39,501 bases of DNA. It comes from a virus. Taxonomy: Duplodnaviria > Heunggongvirae > Uroviricota > Caudoviricetes. The translations under genes and the position numbers were made by a program. This document shows positions 2,055-39,400 of the stretch, in pieces (within the stretch, counting starts at the first letter, position 1; each line of letters starts with the position of its first letter). The stretch lies in the IMG/VR virus record IMGVR_UViG_2671180547_000005; one strand, given 5' to 3'. The notes beneath the pieces are model-generated. The model was not told the DNA's origin. It ran no database searches and saw only the letters and a list, made by a program, of their open reading frames with translations.

Positions 2055-4109
2055 ATGTCAGACTCCAAGTGGAAAATGCTCTCCGCCATGCCCGGAGAGT
2101 TTTCAGTCAAGGTTGCCGGTGGCACGGTGGCATTTATTGAAAGCCCTTTCCGCCCTTCGGGTAATAAAGGGGGGATCACCTTCGCAGACTGCGTGATCCG
2201 CTTCAGCACGAAAGAGCCATTATGGGTAATGCCGGTATCCGGTAATCCCAGTGCAGAAATCACCAGTTCAGGCGTGACTGGCATCATTCCAATCACATCT
2301 GACGTGGCCGGAACGCTCACGCCCTCCGACTGGAATGCACCGGATAACGCCGGGCCTTCCGGTAGCACGAATGGCAGCAGTTCAGAGCCGGAATATTACT
2401 TTGTTGTCATTCTCGCGGGTCAGTCAAATGGCATGGCCTACGGCGAGGGGCTGCCGTTACCGGATTCGTTTGACCGCCCGGACCCACGCATTAAGCAACT
2501 GGCACGCCGCAGTACGGTAACGCCCAACGGTACGTCGTGTACATACAACGACATCATTCCGGCAGACCACTGCCTGCATGATGTTCAGGATATGAGCGGG
2601 ATAAACCACCCGAAAGCTGATCTGGCAAAAGGCCAGTACGGGACTGTCGGTCAGGGGTTGCATATTGCCAAAAAACTGCTTCCCTATATCCCACAGAATG
2701 CCGGGATACTTCTGGTGCCCTGTTGTCGTGGCGGGTCAGCATTCACCACTGGAGCCGACGGCTCATTCAGTGAGGCCAGCGGTGCTTCCGCTGATTCTTC
2801 ACGCTGGGGGGCCGGTAAACCTCTGTATCAGGACCTGGTAAGCCGCACCAAAGTCGCGCTGGCGAAAAACCCGAAAAACAAACTTCTGGCTGTGGTCTGG
2901 ATGCAGGGAGAGGCAGACCTTGCCTCAGGAAGCCAGCAGCATAATAGTTTATTCACGGCCATGGTTCAGCAGTTCAGAACTGACCTGGCTCCGCTTGCTG
3001 CGCAGTGCGTGAGTGGAAATGCCACCACGGTGCCGTGGATTTGCGGTGATACCACGTATTACTGGAAAAACGCTGGCACCGATAAATATGAGGCAGTATA
3101 CGGTGGCTACAAAGGCAAGGAAGCACAGAAAATTTTCTTTGTACCGTTCCTGACGGATGAGAATGGACAGAGCACGCCAACGAATGCTCCGGCGGAAGAC
3201 CCGGATATTGTGGCTGTCGGGTATTACGGTGCAGCATCCCGAACCCAGGGCAGTTTTGTTTCGACACAGCGTGACAGCCATTTCAGCTCATGGGCACGCA
3301 GGGGCGTCATTTCAGACCGTCTGGCCTCAGCTATTATGCTCCATGCAGGGCGCACGGCTGAACTGATGCGTGGGCAGACCGTGACACCACCGGATGAGAA
3401 GCCGTCACCTGATACACCATCAAAACCGTCCACGCCACCCGCAGACACCACGACGATGAGTACGCTATTTGCTTACCGGGCATCTGAGTCTGAAGGACGG
3501 TTGACACCACAGGGTTGGGCTGCCGGAGGTGGCAAGGCTCAAATCGTGGATGATGCCGGAGCCAGCGGGGGTAAGGCAATGAAACTGACCAAGGAAACAG
3601 GAAGAGCCCCCTGGTACCTTGAGCATGATGCTGGTAATGGTGCGGACCTGCTGGGTAAAGGTGGTCTTGTCAGTTGTCGTTTTAAACTCGATGGCGCGCT
3701 TACGGCTAATCAGTACGCACTGGCGCTGTACTGGCCGGTTTCTGCCCTGCCGCAAGGGGTTACTCTGGAAGGAAATGCCGGTCATAACCTGCTGGCATCG
3801 TTCTACGTACAGAGCGATGCCACAGACCTTAACGTGATGTATCACAAAGGAAACACGGCGCAGAACACGAAGCTGGGGTCATTCGGCGCATTTAATAACG
3901 AATGGCATACGCTGGGCTTCCGTTTTGCCGGTAACAACAGTATTGAGGTGACGCCGGTCATTGATGGTAAGGACGGGACACCATTCATGCTGTCGCAGTC
4001 TCCGGTCGGCACGTTTACGGCAGACAAGTTGCGCGTGACCGATATCACTAAAAATGCGACTTACCCGGTACTGATTGACAGTATCGTGGTGGAAGTGAAT
4101 AACGCGTAA
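2055..4109 (+). CDS. NanS-p-like sialate O-acetylesterase (SASA/SGNH domain) with Pro/Thr linker and C-terminal lectin-like domain
   Basis: 684 aa; VVILAGQSNGMAYGEG matches the GQSN motif of the sialate O-acetylesterase family; size and modular layout resemble prophage NanS-p proteins. Confidence 0.6.
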   Translation: MSDSKWKMLSAMPGEFSVKVAGGTVAFIESPFRPSGNKGGITFADCVIRFSTKEPLWVMPVSGNPSAEITSSGVTGIIPITSDVAGTLTPSDWNAPDNAGPSGSTNGSSSEPEYYFVVILAGQSNGMAYGEGLPLPDSFDRPDPRIKQLARRSTVTPNGTSCTYNDIIPADHCLHDVQDMSGINHPKADLAKGQYGTVGQGLHIAKKLLPYIPQNAGILLVPCCRGGSAFTTGADGSFSEASGASADSSRWGAGKPLYQDLVSRTKVALAKNPKNKLLAVVWMQGEADLASGSQQHNSLFTAMVQQFRTDLAPLAAQCVSGNATTVPWICGDTTYYWKNAGTDKYEAVYGGYKGKEAQKIFFVPFLTDENGQSTPTNAPAEDPDIVAVGYYGAASRTQGSFVSTQRDSHFSSWARRGVISDRLASAIMLHAGRTAELMRGQTVTPPDEKPSPDTPSKPSTPPADTTTMSTLFAYRASESEGRLTPQGWAAGGGKAQIVDDAGASGGKAMKLTKETGRAPWYLEHDAGNGADLLGKGGLVSCRFKLDGALTANQYALALYWPVSALPQGVTLEGNAGHNLLASFYVQSDATDLNVMYHKGNTAQNTKLGSFGAFNNEWHTLGFRFAGNNSIEVTPVIDGKDGTPFMLSQSPVGTFTADKLRVTDITKNATYPVLIDSIVVEVNNA

Positions 4110-5400: not shown

Positions 5401-5443
5401 GAGTGATAAAGATATCAACAACAAAGCAGGAGGTTATGCGGCC

Positions 5444-5644
5444 ATGTATCGAAACATACGGTGCCGACATTGTAACAAGCTACTGGCACGAGCCAGCTTC
5501 AGTTATCTGGAAGTTAAATGTCCGCGCTGTAAAACCCTCAATCAAATCACATCTCAGAGCGCCACAGAGCACCCCACATACACAAGGAAATCCTGTCGTG
5601 GGGAACAGAAAGCAAGTTACATCCCGTATCATCAGCACGCCTGA
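5444..5644 (+). CDS. com: Com-like zinc-finger translational activator of mom
   Basis: 66 aa from the internal ATG with an upstream AGGAGG; CxxC ... CPRC zinc-finger pattern as in Mu Com. Confidence 0.7.
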
Positions 5645-6335
5645 ACTTATTCACTATAACGACAATATCGTCGGTTATGGCTCCCGTGAGTTACGGGTTG
5701 AGACAATAAGTTGCTGGCTGGCCCGGCTGGTCGTCGTCAATAAACATTACAGCCATCGTTTCGTAAATAATTCCTACCTTCATCTGGGCATATTTTCAGA
5801 ACGGGAGCTGGTTGGCGTAATGCAATGGGGTTATGCCCTTAATCCAAACAATGGTGCACGCGTCGTAACTGGCACGCAGAACCGCGAATATATGGAGCTT
5901 AACCGGTTATGGCTGCATGACTGTATGCCGAGAAACTCCGAATCAAGGGCAATCAGTTACGCGCTCAAACTAATCAGACAACTTTATCCGCAGGTGCAGT
6001 GGGTTCAGTCGTTTGCAGATGAGCGTTGTGGCTGTCTTGGTGTCGTGTACCAGGCAAGCAATTTTGATTATGTAGGCAGTCATGAAACAACATTCTATGA
6101 ACTTGATGGCGAGTGGTATCACGAGATTTGCAAGAATGCAATCAAACGAGGAGGACAGCGAGGTGAACATCTGCGGGCTAATATCGACAGAGCCAGTGTT
6201 CATAAATTCCGTCAGTTTCGTTACATCCGGTTTCTGGACAAGAGAGCCAGAAAACGCCTTAACACAAAGCTATTCAAAGTCCAGCCTTACCCAAAACCAC
6301 AAACAGTTAAAACTGGTTTGAAAGAGAGTGAATGA
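5598..6335 (+). CDS. mom: Mom-like DNA modification protein
   Basis: Overlaps the 3' end of com in another frame; GTG at 5598 preceded by AAGGAAA; about 245 aa; last gene before the phage end, as in Mu. Start codon inferred. Confidence 0.55.
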
Positions 6336-6379
6336 ACGCTTAAAAACTCATTCTAAAACTCAAAAGAAAAGCGCCGATT

Positions 6380-6463
6380 TAGTATCAAATAAGTTGCGTA
6401 TCGGCGTTTTTCAGCGGTATCAAATGAAATGCAAATCGGTATCAAAAAAATCGCCGCGCTATA
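6380..6463. repeat. Phage right-end (attR-like) cluster of three closely spaced transposase-site repeats
   Basis: AGTATCAAATAAG (6381), CGGTATCAAATGA (6416), CGGTATCAAAAAAA (6437); inferred terminus about 6456..6463 (...GCGCTATA). Confidence 0.6.
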
Positions 6464-6465
6464 GA

Positions 6466-6504
6466 CAGCCTAAGCGGCTGCTGACCTCCCTGACCATGCT
6501 GTAA
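6466..6504 (+). pseudogene. Detached 3' end of IS66 tnpB (QPKRLLTSLTML-stop)
   Basis: Reads in frame as the continuation of the tnpB that ends at 38853 on the other phage flank (…LLEGIDWR + QPKRLLTSLTML). Confidence 0.5.
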
Positions 6505-6548: not shown

Positions 6549-6853
6549 NNNNNNNNNNNNNNNNNNNNNNNNNNNNNNNNNNNNNNNNNNNNNNNNNNNN
6601 NNNNNNNNNNNNNNNNNNNNNNNNNNNNNNNNNNNNNNNNNNNNNNNNNNNNNNNNNNNNNNNNNNNNNNNNNNNNNNNNNNNNNNNNNNNNNNNNNNNN
6701 NNNNNNNNNNNNNNNNNNNNNNNNNNNNNNNNNNNNNNNNNNNNNNNNNNNNNNNNNNNNNNNNNNNNNNNNNNNNNNNNNNNNNNNNNNNNNNNNNNNN
6801 NNNNNNNNNNNNNNNNNNNNNNNNNNNNNNNNNNNNNNNNNNNNNNNNNNNNN
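6549..6853. other. Assembly gap (305 N)
   Basis: Run of n. Confidence 1.
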
Positions 6854-35564: not shown

Positions 35565-37652
35565 TCAGGCCAGCGGATCACTTTCTTTTAATTTCGCTTC
35601 GAGCAGTTGCAATCCCCGCTGGAAATTACGCTCGTATTCTTCATCAGGTTCATCGTCAGCGACCGGTTGCTGAACGGTCACCGTATTACCCACAGGGCGG
35701 TATATGTTTTCCAGCCAGGGCTCCTGCGGCTTGTGCTCCAGCACGTTGACAACCTCATCCTCGGCATCACGGATTTTTTCCTCTGCGCGTTTACGCATGC
35801 CTTTAAGGCGCTGCTGCTGTTTGTAGTATTCCGCGCTGACAGGGAAGGCTTCGCGTTTATTGCCGTCCCATACCGCCTCGCAAATCACGCTGCCATCCGG
35901 GCGGCGCACGGTAATTCGTTCGGCATCATGAATGTCATAGCTGATAAGTACCTTACGGCCATGCTCGTCACGCAGCTCGGGCGCGTAGTAAATATTATTC
36001 AGCCAGCGTATTTCACAGCGTCTTACAGGGCGCTCCACCATCGGCCGGAACATATCCCGCAGTTCAACATCGGACAGCCATTCAATTTCCGTGTCCTCTT
36101 CCGCCAGGCGTTTTTTTCTGAACTCCGCCGGGCTGTAATGTTTACCGTTCGGCTTCATGGGTAATTCATCGTGCGGCCGGTTGTTGTACCACTCAACACC
36201 GTCACGAATGGCATCAATCAGTTCAGACCAGGACGGTAAATCACGCATCGCTGACTGCTGCCGGGCGTTCAGCCGTTTGCCCTGTTGCAGGGCACTGAAT
36301 GCCGAGCGTAAATCGCGGTTGGTTTTACGTAACGTCTCGCGATCTGCTCCTTTCCCGAAATAGGTGCGGTATTTACGGGCTATGCGCATCGGTAATGTGC
36401 GGTTAAGCCGTTCGATAATGCCCCGTCCCTGCGGATTACCGGCAATCCCTGTCGGGTGATTAATCCCCAGTCGTGGCAGTATCCCCACAATCTCCTTATC
36501 CAGGACGTCGGCGGTTTCCCCGGAGCCATTATCCGAGTAATACAGAAACGGTTTGCCATGATGGCGAATACCGTGCTGTATGGCACCGGCTACGGCGAAA
36601 ACATTTTCAGCCAGGTCAAGGCTCCAGCCCACCACAAAGCGCGTGCCACCGTCGATAACAAAGGTCACTTCCGGTGCGAATGGCCGCCCGTGAACCGGGT
36701 GCGCGCATTTCAGCTTCATGCCGTGACCGTCACCAATCCAGACATAATTCACCGGCATTCTGGACCAGTCGCGGCGCGTGAATCCCTCAAGCTGACGGTA
36801 TTCACTGCCAGTTACCCGGCCTTTTTGTTTCACCACTTCCGGCAGTTTCTTCATTGCGCGGCGAATGGTGTCATAAGAGGGCATGATATCGAGCATATAA
36901 GGCTCATCAGCGTGCCGGTGCTGCCATTCAGCAACAAAATCCTCGTAAGCCTCGGTCATTGGTCGGCCGTTTGACTGGCGATACTGCGCCAGAAATTCGG
37001 GCAGCCAGTTAATATCTTCGGCTTTTATTTCCTGGCGTTTACCCGGTGCCAGTAAAAGCAGGCGTTCAGCGGCGTTCTGTGCCTTGTTAAAGGCCGCAAT
37101 CCAGCGTTTCAGCGTGATTTCACTCAACGCGCGGCTGTTTCCCTTTTTGGCGTTCGCCGTCTCAACCATTGCCACAATGCGCTCGTCCAGTTGTGATCGT
37201 GCCAGGCTGTTAACGAGGAACCGGATAGCTTTAGCGCAGCTGAAACCGGGTTGTTGCGTGAATTTCAGCACCTCACTGACGATCGCAATGCGTGCGTCTG
37301 CCACCTGGCGCTGGTTTTCAGTCAGGGCATTGAGGCGTTCGACCATCAGTTGTGGTGATCCGCGATATGCCTCCACCGCATCAACCACGGCAGACGAGCG
37401 TCTGGCCTTTGTCACCACCGGAGCCGGTGATTCATCGGCTTTTTGCGTCATCAGTTGCAGGGCATAACGTTCGCGTAATGCCTGCTGTGTCACTTCAGGT
37501 AAACAGTCAATGCTGTATTCAAAACCTTTAGCGCCTTTCTTGCGGCGTCTGCTGGTTTCGCTGGTTGCATACTTCCTGATTGAATAGCGAACGCCTTGCT
37601 CCGTTCCCGGCATCCCCGGTAATCCAACCAGTTCTTTAACTGAAGCAAACAT
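35565..37652 (-). CDS. Mu-type DDE transposase (MuA-like)
   Basis: 695 aa; follows ner and precedes B as in Mu. Confidence 0.85.
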   Translation of the reverse strand: MFASVKELVGLPGMPGTEQGVRYSIRKYATSETSRRRKKGAKGFEYSIDCLPEVTQQALRERYALQLMTQKADESPAPVVTKARRSSAVVDAVEAYRGSPQLMVERLNALTENQRQVADARIAIVSEVLKFTQQPGFSCAKAIRFLVNSLARSQLDERIVAMVETANAKKGNSRALSEITLKRWIAAFNKAQNAAERLLLLAPGKRQEIKAEDINWLPEFLAQYRQSNGRPMTEAYEDFVAEWQHRHADEPYMLDIMPSYDTIRRAMKKLPEVVKQKGRVTGSEYRQLEGFTRRDWSRMPVNYVWIGDGHGMKLKCAHPVHGRPFAPEVTFVIDGGTRFVVGWSLDLAENVFAVAGAIQHGIRHHGKPFLYYSDNGSGETADVLDKEIVGILPRLGINHPTGIAGNPQGRGIIERLNRTLPMRIARKYRTYFGKGADRETLRKTNRDLRSAFSALQQGKRLNARQQSAMRDLPSWSELIDAIRDGVEWYNNRPHDELPMKPNGKHYSPAEFRKKRLAEEDTEIEWLSDVELRDMFRPMVERPVRRCEIRWLNNIYYAPELRDEHGRKVLISYDIHDAERITVRRPDGSVICEAVWDGNKREAFPVSAEYYKQQQRLKGMRKRAEEKIRDAEDEVVNVLEHKPQEPWLENIYRPVGNTVTVQQPVADDEPDEEYERNFQRGLQLLEAKLKESDPLA

Positions 37653-37654
37653 AA

Positions 37655-37885
37655 TTACGCGACCTTACGAATGTAGCGGCTGGGCCAAATCTCCTCGGGC
37701 GGCACCCCCAGGCATTCCGCGATAATCCCCTCATACTTGGGAACATGGCGGTATACCGCGTTGTACAGATTGTTCTGACCCACGCCAGCTTTACGGGCCA
37801 GCGCCCTCATGCTTCCTTCTCTGGCTCTGACTTCCCCCAAAATTCTTTGAGGATGCCAATCAGGCTTAACTTCATTTCTCGCCAT
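37655..37885 (-). CDS. ner: Ner-like DNA-binding regulator
   Basis: 76 aa; DWH ... IIAECLGVPPEEIWPSRY resembles Mu Ner. Confidence 0.8.
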   Translation of the reverse strand: MARNEVKPDWHPQRILGEVRAREGSMRALARKAGVGQNNLYNAVYRHVPKYEGIIAECLGVPPEEIWPSRYIRKVA

Positions 37886-37914
37886 GATTCATCTATCCTA
37901 AAAAGTTACGAAAT

Positions 37915-37938
37915 TTGATAACTAAACTTAGTTATCAA
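37915..37938. promoter_or_regulatory. Perfect 24-bp palindrome in the ner / repressor divergent region (operator candidate)
   Basis: TTGATAACTAA-AC-TTAGTTATCAA; further TTGATA-type half-sites and a 9-bp inverted pair with GATC (TTGATCCAC at 37953, GTGGATCAA at 38008). Confidence 0.55.
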
Positions 37939-38070
37939 GTTTGATATAAGTATTGATCCACTTCTGCTTCATGTAAAGCAAAAAAAACATCTTTCTTTTG
38001 TCTATTGTGGATCAATGGTTGCTGACAACACTAAAAGTTAATAATTTCAAATTGATAGGAAGAAAAGAAA

Positions 38071-38616
38071 ATGAACAAGCAAACAACAACATCTCTTTCT
38101 TTTCCTGGTGGTAGAAAAGAAAGCATTGCTGAGCGTCTGAAAAGGCTGATTGGCTCCCGCAGCGTCAGAGCTGCAGCAAGAGATTGGGGGCTTTCATTTT
38201 CAACACTAAACAATTATCTGTCTCGTGGCACTGAGCCATCCTTAAGTGTCGCCCTTCAGATTGCGTCTATCGAAGGAGTAAGTGTTGAGTGGCTATGTGG
38301 ATTCAGTGATGCATCACAAGTGAATCGGTGTGAGATCAAGGAAAATCAAGATGAAAGCAAGAAGATAATTATGACGATTATCAGCGCACTTGATGAAAAA
38401 GACTTAGAGCAGCTATCGAAAAATTTGGTTCTGAATGGAGCCAAGTACTTAGCTCGGTTGTTAGAGCCTGAAAATCAAGATCTAATCCGCTTAGAAGGAA
38501 GGAAAAGAATAGCTGCATTACAGCTTGAAGGTATGTCTGACGAACGCGTCAGAGAGATTTTGGAAGAAACTGAGAGAAGTCGCAAATCTAACGCGGTAGA
38601 ACCAAAAGCGGGTTAA
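38071..38616 (+). CDS. Phage repressor, XRE/CI-type HTH
   Basis: 181 aa with an N-terminal HTH; divergent from ner at the phage left end. Confidence 0.7.
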   Translation: MNKQTTTSLSFPGGRKESIAERLKRLIGSRSVRAAARDWGLSFSTLNNYLSRGTEPSLSVALQIASIEGVSVEWLCGFSDASQVNRCEIKENQDESKKIIMTIISALDEKDLEQLSKNLVLNGAKYLARLLEPENQDLIRLEGRKRIAALQLEGMSDERVREILEETERSRKSNAVEPKAG

Positions 38617-38689
38617 TAGCATTAGCCCGCATTTTGCACTATATCGAGTATTTCGCATTGTTTGGAACGCCTTAAAAGACTAAAACCAC

Positions 38690-38862
38690 AGTATCAAATG
38701 AGTTGCCGATTTTATAATAAATGACTAATTATTGCACAATCGGTATCAAATAGACCTTATCCGCACATCTAGCCATCACCTGTTTTATTTCAGTATCTTA
38801 CAGGTGATTTCACCTCCTTTCACTAAACCCCTTGTCGGTATCAAATGATTCACCTGGTTATA
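38690..38862. repeat. Phage left-end (attL-like) cluster of three spaced transposase-site repeats
   Basis: CAGTATCAAATGAG (38690), CGGTATCAAATAG (38742), CGGTATCAAATGATTCA (38835); inferred terminus at 38862. Confidence 0.6.
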
Positions 38863-39173
38863 TGTCGCCAGTCGATACCTTCCAGCAGCATCGCCAGCTG
38901 CGCCTGTGTAAGGAACACTTTGCCATCACGGGCTGACGGCCAGGCGAAGCGCCCACGCTCCAGCCGTTTGGTCAGGAGGCACAGTCCGTCACTGGTGGAC
39001 CACAGCAGTTTAACCTGACTGCCGCTGCGGCCCCGGAAAATGAAAACATGGCCGGACATGGGATCGTCTTTCAGCGCCGTCTGTACTTTCGCAGCCAGGC
39101 CGTTGAAGCCATTTCTCATATCGGTGATACCGGCAACCAGCCAAATTTTGATCCCGGAAGGTAACGGGATCAT
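38853..39173 (-). CDS. tnpB: IS66-family TnpB (orf2), 3' end interrupted at the phage junction
   Basis: 107 aa with the characteristic IWLVAGITDMR ... LLEGIDWR; the stop codon coincides with the first bases of the phage end. Confidence 0.75.
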
Positions 39174-39400
39174 CGCTTCAGTTCCTGTATCAGCAGAGTC
39201 AGGAGCTTTTCGCTGACATTGCCATTGAAGCGGAGCGTCCCGTGCCGGAACGTTACCTCACAGCTGATACTGAGGGTTTTCGGGTCCTCTGCGAGCGATT
39301 CTGGCTGTTCGGCAGCTGCATCGAGAGTCACAGGAAGTAGCTGGGGGCTCTCTGAAGAAGGTAATAGCTGAGGTGTACTGGCAATAGCGGACACTACCAT
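39170..39400 (-). CDS. Probable IS66-family orf1 (TnpA) C-terminal part
   Basis: Stop overlaps the tnpB start in an ATGA arrangement; frame stays open to the window edge. Confidence 0.4.
   Translation of the reverse strand: MVVSAIASTPQLLPSSESPQLLPVTLDAAAEQPESLAEDPKTLSISCEVTFRHGTLRFNGNVSEKLLTLLIQELKR

Follow-up and report, generated by a model that had tools for sequence, protein, structure and literature searches.

The window, meaning the whole stretch of 39,501 nucleotides analysed here (IMG/VR record IMGVR_UViG_2671180547_000005), carries a Mu-like prophage on its minus strand, and the element in question is the 185 bp gap (37886–38070, 28% G+C) between the divergent ner and repressor genes of this prophage. 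Open reading frames (ORFs) and Pfam matches showed a Mu-type gene order, in which the divergent repressor gene and a ner-transposase-MuB series adjoin the left prophage end (attL); the MuB homologue (Pfam Phage-MuB_C) is one of four genes next to that end. The window Ner is 41% identical to the Ner protein of phage D108. Matches to the control region were found in 233 of 5,426 complete E. coli genomes, and the assembly collection lists the exact window Ner protein in 5,393 blocks, among them O157 strains and copies that lie within Stx phages. The gap is the early (lysis/lysogeny) control region of a widespread, uncharacterised Mu-like E. coli prophage, and no description of the operators of this family was found in the literature searched, which included papers on SfMu and on the Yersinia Mu-like phages. 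The genes and repeats of the region are as follows.

35565–37652, minus strand: Mu-type transposase gene, 695 aa, with PF02316 and Mu-transpos_C domains
37655–37885, minus strand: ner, 76 aa, Cro-like early regulator (PF13693 HTH_35, E 1e-21)
37915–37938, no strand assigned: palindrome (sites a and b), TTGATAACTAA-AC-TTAGTTATCAA, with two perfect 11-bp arms
37941–37946, plus strand: TTGATA, site c, over the start of the predicted early promoter (Pe)
37952–37961, plus strand: proximal GATC arm, site d, ATTGATCCAC
38007–38016, plus strand: distal GATC arm, site e, GTGGATCAAT
38052–38057, plus strand: TTGATA, site f, in the repressor leader
38071–38616, plus strand: repressor gene, 181 aa (PHROG 3037 'transcriptional repressor', E 4.5e-60)

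A preliminary description had taken the gap for the operator region between the divergent ner and repressor genes of a Mu-like prophage, and this much is borne out; its repeats are also non-random. TTGATA occurs four times in the gap against 0.29 expected from dinucleotide-preserving shuffles of the gap itself (0 of 20,000 shuffles reach four), and TTGAT six times against 1.17 (P 5e-4). A motif scan of the whole window found 25 copies of TTGATA (14.8 ± 3.7 expected), and the gap is the sole 185-bp stretch with four; three-copy stretches exist elsewhere, and each cluster of end (att) repeats has three. A TTGATA frequency no higher here than in the rest of the prophage, which would have spoken against the preliminary description, was thus not observed. 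The single half-sites listed in that description at 37941 and 38052 are present. Its "perfect 24-bp palindrome" is correctly placed and has perfect 11-bp arms, but the central AC is not self-complementary, so that 22 of 24 positions pair; the symmetry extends imperfectly to 15-nt arms (37911–37942, 93%). The GATC-bearing inverted pair, described as 9 bp, is in fact 10 bp long and 100% complementary, with a centre-to-centre distance of 55 bp. What does not hold is the treatment of all TTGATA elements as one class of half-site: sites a to c align with CGGATAA elements in relatives and change with Ner, sites d and e (TTGATCC) go with the repressor and the Pe -10, and site f is not conserved.

These classes emerged from comparison with relatives, obtained by scanning a Ner alignment against viral contigs, which yielded 80 loci with 55 distinct operator regions. 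Variation within a repressor type was no guide to constraint, as copies of type A (the window type) differ by about one base each and the close variant CI5 by about 11%, which is too little or too uniform.

The palindrome array, Ner and the transposase N-terminus

The palindrome occupies positions 30–53 bp ahead of the ner ATG, with the Pe -10 on one side and the ribosome-binding site of ner on the other; it matches D108 and Mu in both position and architecture. The D108 inverted repeat, CCGTGAGCTAC-N8-GTAGCTCACGG, is found 25–54 bp upstream of its ner ATG, and the Mu repeat CTAAGT-N6-ACTTAG 47–64 bp upstream, within the stretch annotated in GenBank as Ner-binding. An identical Ner adjoins not only repressor type A but three further repressor alleles (A′, B and C), and the outer bases TTGATAAC-N8-GTTATCAA are invariant across all four types, including type C, whose repressor is about 44% identical to that of the window. 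The inner eight bases of the palindrome and everything beyond ~37960 diverge among the same types.

Most relatives have the sequence GGATAAC-N8-GTTATCC at these positions; another GGATAAC precedes the ribosome-binding site of ner, and (C/T)GGATA coincides with the start site. The family-wide form is a GATAAC-N8-GTTATC array (CGGATAAC in relatives). Alignment with these elements indicates that sites a, b and c are one lineage's version of the family array, with CG replaced by TT at all three. Site c aligns with (C/T)GGATA in relatives L086, L096, L112 and L152 and is lost in CI5 (TTTAATAC) and in type C (TTTAGTA); it would be a weaker member of the putative Ner-type array. A degenerate fourth element is also recognisable:

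37904–37909, plus strand: AGTTAC, next to the ner ribosome-binding site

Its counterpart in the alignment A3 relatives is a conserved GTTATC/GTTACC, and it also aligns with the corresponding block of StxMu and L005.

Across the ~55 distinct regions the ner-proximal motif follows the recognition helix of Ner, in three combinations.

TLANAL (Mu-like Ner): TTACTAAGT, a Mu-type site
S/TLKNAL: GGATAAC
NLYNAV (window): TTGATAAC

The relative L086 is informative as a natural recombinant. Its repressor is 64% identical to that of the window and has the same recognition helix (GLSFSTLNNY), its Ner is of Yp5 type (54.5% identical), and three direct CGGATA elements (CGGATAAC, CGGATAAT and CGGATA) replace the TTGATAAC palindrome and site c. 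The transposase N-termini of L086 and Yp5 equal that of the window at 24 of the first 27 residues, which disfavours the transposase as the reader of the CG/TT difference. With the same repressor helix next to a different array, the difference is best explained by Ner, and not by the repressor nor (probably) by the transposase. The solved complex of EnrR, a Ner-family protein, consists of a closely packed pair of molecules on a short palindrome (PMC9023278), which fits short repeated elements of the kind found in the window. We infer that the palindrome at 37915–37938 is the Ner operator.

Two other leads on the palindrome were set aside. A scan of IMG/VR for TTGATAACN8GTTATCAA returned 40 loci. 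A Ner gene is present at just four of these, all of them prophage copies already known; the others match by chance and belong to unrelated viruses. A Fur box was rejected as a reading of GATAAC..GTTATC, since only about 10 of 19 positions match (by eye) and the spacers of relatives are G+C-rich.

It is unlikely that the palindrome is instead an operator of the repressor, positioned downstream of Pe in the manner of Mu O3. An STLNNY recognition helix is indeed common to every repressor type that adjoins it, and type B and one type C variant have further GATAAC-like words in their repressor-proximal halves; however, L086 has the same repressor helix and no such palindrome, the palindrome stays unchanged while the repressor falls to ~44% identity, and its location agrees with that of the Ner sites in Mu and D108.

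The remaining candidate reader of the array is the transposase, on account of its N-terminal domain:

37467–37652, minus strand: transposase residues 1–62, MuA I-alpha-type (enhancer-binding) winged-helix domain

Residues 2–62 match PDB entry 1TNS (E 7.6e-7), the DNA-binding domain of the Mu c repressor (1G4D, E 2e-3) and PF02316 (E 1.3e-8). Following Mu, the preliminary description had suggested that repressor and transposase share a DNA-binding domain, which is not so here: BLASTP of the repressor against the transposase N-terminus gave E 2.5, a second BLASTP gave no match, and PF02316 was found in the transposase alone. As a positive control, the repressors of L117, L125 and L139 were compared with residues 1–50 of the respective transposases, giving 49–54% identity and E values between 1e-13 and 6e-17. 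The window repressor is probably of XRE type and is dissimilar to the transposase N-terminus, and the Mu arrangement is thus not applicable to it. By these sequence comparisons, the shared-domain arrangement exists in the sister lineages L117, L125 and L139 and is lost here, apparently through replacement of the repressor DNA-binding domain.

The transposases of StxMu and the window are 40% identical over residues 1–45 and 96–99% identical from residue 46 on. Residues 1–45 (37518–37652) have been exchanged together with ner, the operator and the repressor, and the sharp boundary at about residue 45 places the N-terminal part of the I-alpha domain within the exchangeable immunity module. Mu and D108 show the same pattern of module boundary when compared with each other.

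The transposase might accordingly read an enhancer of its own within the region, possibly the GATAAC/TTGATA array, either alone or in addition to Ner, in which case Ner and not the repressor would compete with it. We consider this quite improbable. In its favour, the I-alpha domain has been retained, the boundary at ~residue 45 unites its N-terminal part and the array in one module, as also for Mu versus D108, and the repressor, for want of homology to the transposase, can no longer have sites in common with it; but Yp5 and L086 have N-termini near-identical to that of the window next to arrays of CGGATA and not TTGATA, and the transposition enhancer of Mu lies upstream of Pe, not downstream (PMC3145075). 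The integration host factor (IHF) consensus WATCAANNNNTTR has no match in the whole window. If true, competition between Ner and transposase would be a rewired form of the Mu coupling between immunity and transposition, and the residual interest of the region lies in where the orphaned I-alpha domain of the transposase binds.

The GATC pair, the repressor and the early promoter

The GATC pair is best described in relation to the predicted promoters of the gap.

37949–37977, minus strand: predicted early promoter Pe, -35 TTTACA (37977–37972), 17-bp spacer, -10 AATACT (37954–37949), start at ~37942
38019–38047, plus strand: weak candidate repressor promoter (Pc), -35 TTGCTG, 17-bp spacer, -10 TAATTT, start at ~38054

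Pe was the only promoter-like site in a consensus scan and the highest in a weighted scan (9.4), and its layout matches that of the annotated Mu early promoter, GCTTTACA-N17-TATCTT. Relative to its predicted start, the palindrome would span about +5 to +28, site c would lie over the start itself, site d overlaps the spacer and -10, and site e falls at about -66 to -75, some 30 bp upstream of the -35. The Pc candidate has the top plus-strand score (7.7 vs 9.4 for Pe), is kept in CI5 and would set site e at about -42. TTGATA as a plus-strand -35 hexamer, at 37915 or 37941, was rejected: both copies score under the 38019 candidate and have no credible -10.

The N-terminus of the repressor resembles an XRE/CI-type helix-turn-helix (HTH), with both Pfam matches below threshold (HTH_3, 21.8 bits against a cut-off of 23, E 2e-4; Phage_CI_repr, 17.1 against 22), and its nearest PDB match is weak (E 0.37). 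Residues 94–178 match phrog_7148 (E 1.2e-4) and the C-terminus of the D108 c repressor (E 0.006). From these matches the protein looks like a domain swap between an XRE-type HTH and a C-terminal part that is weakly Mu/D108 c-like.

In the window, L086, L145 and L152, whose repressors have the helix WGLSFSTLNNY, arms of TGATC(C/T)CA type bracket the Pe -35 at similar spacing; those of L086 read TGATCCACAT..ATGTGGATCA and are 50 bp apart. L112 has the helix WNLSVSTLNNY (reported as a one-residue difference) and the arms ATTGAACCCA..TGGGTTCAAT at 56 bp. The inverted-repeat arms that overlap the lytic promoter were found to change with the repressor HTH. Sites d and e are thus a putative repressor operator pair, about five helical turns apart, and the weak resemblance of the repressor C-terminal part to that of the Mu/D108 c repressors makes looping between them plausible.

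Site d also overlaps the Pe block GGATCAATACT, the GATC of which is directly upstream of the -10 (37949–37958). Of the 55 distinct related operator regions, 28 have a GATC-bearing -10 block of this kind (GATCAATACT or a sequence close to it), independently of their repressor or Ner type; Mu and D108 do not. The transposase promoters of IS10 and Tn5 are Dam-controlled, and by analogy the conserved GATC at Pe may render early transcription Dam-sensitive.

This raises the question of whether the GATC 10-mers are host-factor or methylation sites (DnaA-box-like TGATCCACA, or Dam control of Pe) instead of repressor operators, which we regard as very unlikely. Site e on the minus strand does match TTATCCACA at 8 of 9 positions, the GATC just upstream of the -10 is kept in those 28 of 55 regions regardless of repressor, and the IS10 and Tn5 precedents are pertinent. 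The DnaA-box reading is unspecific, however, because the window has 21 such one-mismatch words and one in the gap is therefore unremarkable; the distal arm follows the repressor HTH, and Dam control and repressor binding can coexist in any case. As a separate observation, one-mismatch DnaA-box-like words are over-represented in the window, the 21 copies comparing with 7.5 ± 2.7 expected and no shuffle reaching that number.

A purine motif, GAAAAGAAAG / CTTTCTTTTC, was also noted in four copies (37990–37999, 38060–38069, 38095–38104 and 38114–38123) that lie at near-fixed distances from the Pe -10 in numerous lineages whose regulators differ. The window as a whole has just 14 occurrences of the 7-nt core, AAAGAAA/TTTCTTT. 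Two copies fall in repressor codons (FSF and GKES), one is the repressor ribosome-binding site and one lies just upstream of the Pe -35; the motif may act as an UP-like element or be recognised by some conserved factor.

Prophage ends and the TTGATA core

The prophage ends are organised as two clusters of repeats.

38688–38862, minus strand: attL, three predicted transposase-binding repeats (38688–38699, 38740–38751 and 38835–38846), core TTTGATAC, terminus at 38862
6379–6463, minus strand: attR, three repeats (6379–6390, 6414–6425 and 6436–6447), core TTTGATAC, terminus at 6463

The left terminus was placed by alignment of five copies at different chromosomal insertion sites, and the orientation and junctions of attR were checked against the complete genome of strain HH35. 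The end repeats contain TTGATA, as had been noticed at the outset (three copies per cluster), and TTTGATAC is invariant in 6/6 att sites. The further proposal that operator and ends share this core as a common binding specificity fails, for the two do not covary across lineages. In L1–L3 and R1–R3 the core is flanked by YGA; within 37886–38070 there is no TTTGATAC, and the best operator match to a weight matrix of the att sites ranks 37th in the window. Five lineages share TTTGATAC ends, yet the Yp5-type, L086, L127 and StxMu operators have 0–1 TTGATA. Lineages with the end cores ATTCTGGGCG, ATTCTGCAC and ATTCTGGAC mostly have the same GGATAAC array, and in none of them does the operator contain the end core: L096, L098, L112 and L152 combine different ends with the same GGATAAC operator, as does L131 with a degenerate array, and L145 has no GGATAAC and likewise lacks its own end core in the operator. 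Because four lineages with the same ends have 0–1 operator TTGATA, coincidence is the best reading, and the likeness of the operator to the TTTGATAC ends appears, from this comparison, to be lineage-specific and not a shared binding specificity.

Site f adds little to the case. It is kept only in CI5, the aligned positions in L086, L096 and L112 reading TTAGATAA, ATAGATTG and ATGGTTAT, respectively (alignment A3), and it is probably incidental.

Least probable of all is that every TTGATA/TTGATC is a half-site of one repressor operator, with the transposase reading the same core there and at the ends as in a Mu-type enhancer: the enrichment of TTGAT (6 vs 1.17 expected), the ATTTGATA that site a has in common with the att sites, the I-alpha-type domain of the transposase and a third element in type B that equals TTTGATAC exactly all point that way, but the repressor has no I-alpha domain, the elements split into classes with different partners, the four same-end lineages lack TTGATA-rich operators, the invariant C of TTTGATAC is missing from the operator sites, whose scores on the att matrix rank 37th or below, and in Mu itself recognition of the ends and recognition of the enhancer fall to different domains.

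Several features of the ends themselves were recorded. Both termini end in TA (5′-TATAACC... and 5′-TATAGCG...; 38859–38862 and 6460–6463), as do those in HH35, CI5 and M18, each inserted elsewhere; since TA copies occupy different insertion sites, the TA-ended form has evidently transposed. The termini of O157 Z1825 and StxMu are canonical TG/CA (5′-TGTAACC). Target duplications appear to be 4 bp (GACA here, 6464–6467 and 38863–38866; CGTA in HH35, L155/L001), compared with 5 bp for Mu, and the copy in LC727881 is annotated with a 4-bp duplication. The prophage sits in an IS66-family element and breaks its TnpB (orfB) gene (window 38850–39400); the apparent stop codon of the broken ORF (38850–38852) falls within the phage end, and joining the flanks restores an uninterrupted IS66 TnpB C-terminus (...DWRQPKR...).

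The first 6548 nucleotides of the window are inverted relative to the prophage body, from which they are separated by 305 N (6549–6853). This segment holds the G-segment inverted repeat (1–45 and ~1275–1320), a gin-type invertase gene (1397–1969) and mom (5403–6335, Pfam Mom), the start of which is overlapped by a Com-like zinc-finger ORF (by eye). The complete HH35 genome shows these two parts in the opposite orientation to each other, with a prophage of 38,626 bp, and the inversion of the first 6.5 kb appears to be an artefact of scaffolding at repeats. A 684-aa cargo gene (2055–4109) with a SASA carbohydrate-esterase domain (E 1.5e-13) and DUF6645 (E 7e-68), without a match in PADLOC, is situated between the invertase gene and com/mom; its product may be a surface-polysaccharide deacetylase.

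Two putative operator systems in one control region

Taken together, the positions, enrichment, homologies and co-inheritance observed here suggest that the gap holds two operator systems that both contain TTGAT, a Ner operator array and a repressor operator pair, and that the likeness to the prophage ends is coincidental; we give this reading a probability of roughly 60%. Ner, made from Pe, would bind the palindrome at 37915–37938 with help from TTGATA at 37941 and, sitting just downstream of the Pe start, would throttle early (ner-A-B) transcription as in Mu and D108. The repressor, probably of XRE type, would bind ATTGATCCAC/GTGGATCAAT, with one arm over the Pe -10 and spacer and the other ~30 bp upstream of the -35; occupying both arms, probably looped through its Mu-c-like C-terminal domain, it would shut Pe, and the distal arm could also help the repressor's own promoter. 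The TTGATA at 38052 would be incidental.

A number of points weigh against this arrangement. Every site assignment rests on position and co-inheritance. Ner and transposase residues 1–~45 are inherited as one module, which leaves the L086/Yp5 comparison as the only argument against binding of the GATAAC array by the transposase, and a few positions in the presumed recognition helix and wing do distinguish the L086 and Yp5 transposase N-termini from that of the window. Repressor specificities may overlap, because types A, B, C and Yp5 all share the STLNNY helix, and only the distal arm is informative, because the proximal arm overlaps a promoter block conserved whatever the repressor type. The proximal arm is also mutated in two natural type A copies, L023 (ATTGATTCAC) and L026 (ATTGTTCCAC). 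Pc is weakly predicted, and should it be distant from the Ner sites, repression of Pc by Ner, as known from Mu, would not be possible. Finally, the chance that the top hexamer of the operator would fall in the 8-bp att core is low (0.5–2% by rough estimate), so that coincidence with the ends is not trivial. The L023 and L026 changes are single and each falls within the GATC of the proximal 10-mer; they may represent mutations of the operator or promoter in prophages that are decaying or de-repressed.

Compared with the Ner operators of D108 and Mu, the window has a Ner homologue and an inverted repeat in the interval from the Pe -10 to the ribosome-binding site of ner; the perfect arms of this repeat are 11 bp long, as in D108, and its conserved part, 8-bp arms around an A/T-rich spacer of 8 bp, parallels the D108 11-N8-11 layout. 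The motifs themselves differ (TTGATAAC vs CCGTGAGCTAC in D108 and TA(A/G)CTAAGT in Mu), and the putative window operator has the extra flanking elements of site c and the degenerate GTTAC. The divergent repressor and ner-A-B genes near attL, the I-alpha-type transposase domain and an immunity module boundary inside the transposase gene recall the O1–O3 operators and enhancer (IAS) of Mu; unlike in Mu, the repressor has a putative XRE-type HTH unrelated to the transposase, and the window has no IHF consensus. The pairing of a putative XRE/CI-type repressor with a small, divergently encoded Cro-like protein is reminiscent of lambda CI and Cro, as are predicted repressor sites that overlap the lytic promoter, one of them at about -42 from the weak candidate maintenance promoter. 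In contrast to lambda, which has adjacent 17-bp dyads, the window arms are single 10-mers 55 bp apart, Ner (the Cro analogue) would have its own separate sites, and the phage replicates by transposition. The GATC at the -10 of a transposase-operon promoter, conserved in many relatives, likens Pe to the Dam-sensitive promoters of IS10 and Tn5.

The region is regulatory and statistically solid, yet ordinary. It illustrates that where a short core is common to two regulatory elements, covariation across relatives should be checked before a mechanism is assigned. The analysis puts forward three candidate assignments for experiment, namely a Ner operator TTGATAAC-N8-GTTATCAA, a repressor pair ATTGATCCAC with arms centred 55 bp apart, and Pe at 37977–37949. 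For the biology of this prophage family, the comparisons indicate that the branch to which the window belongs does not follow the textbook model of Mu, where a domain and sites are common to repressor and transposase.

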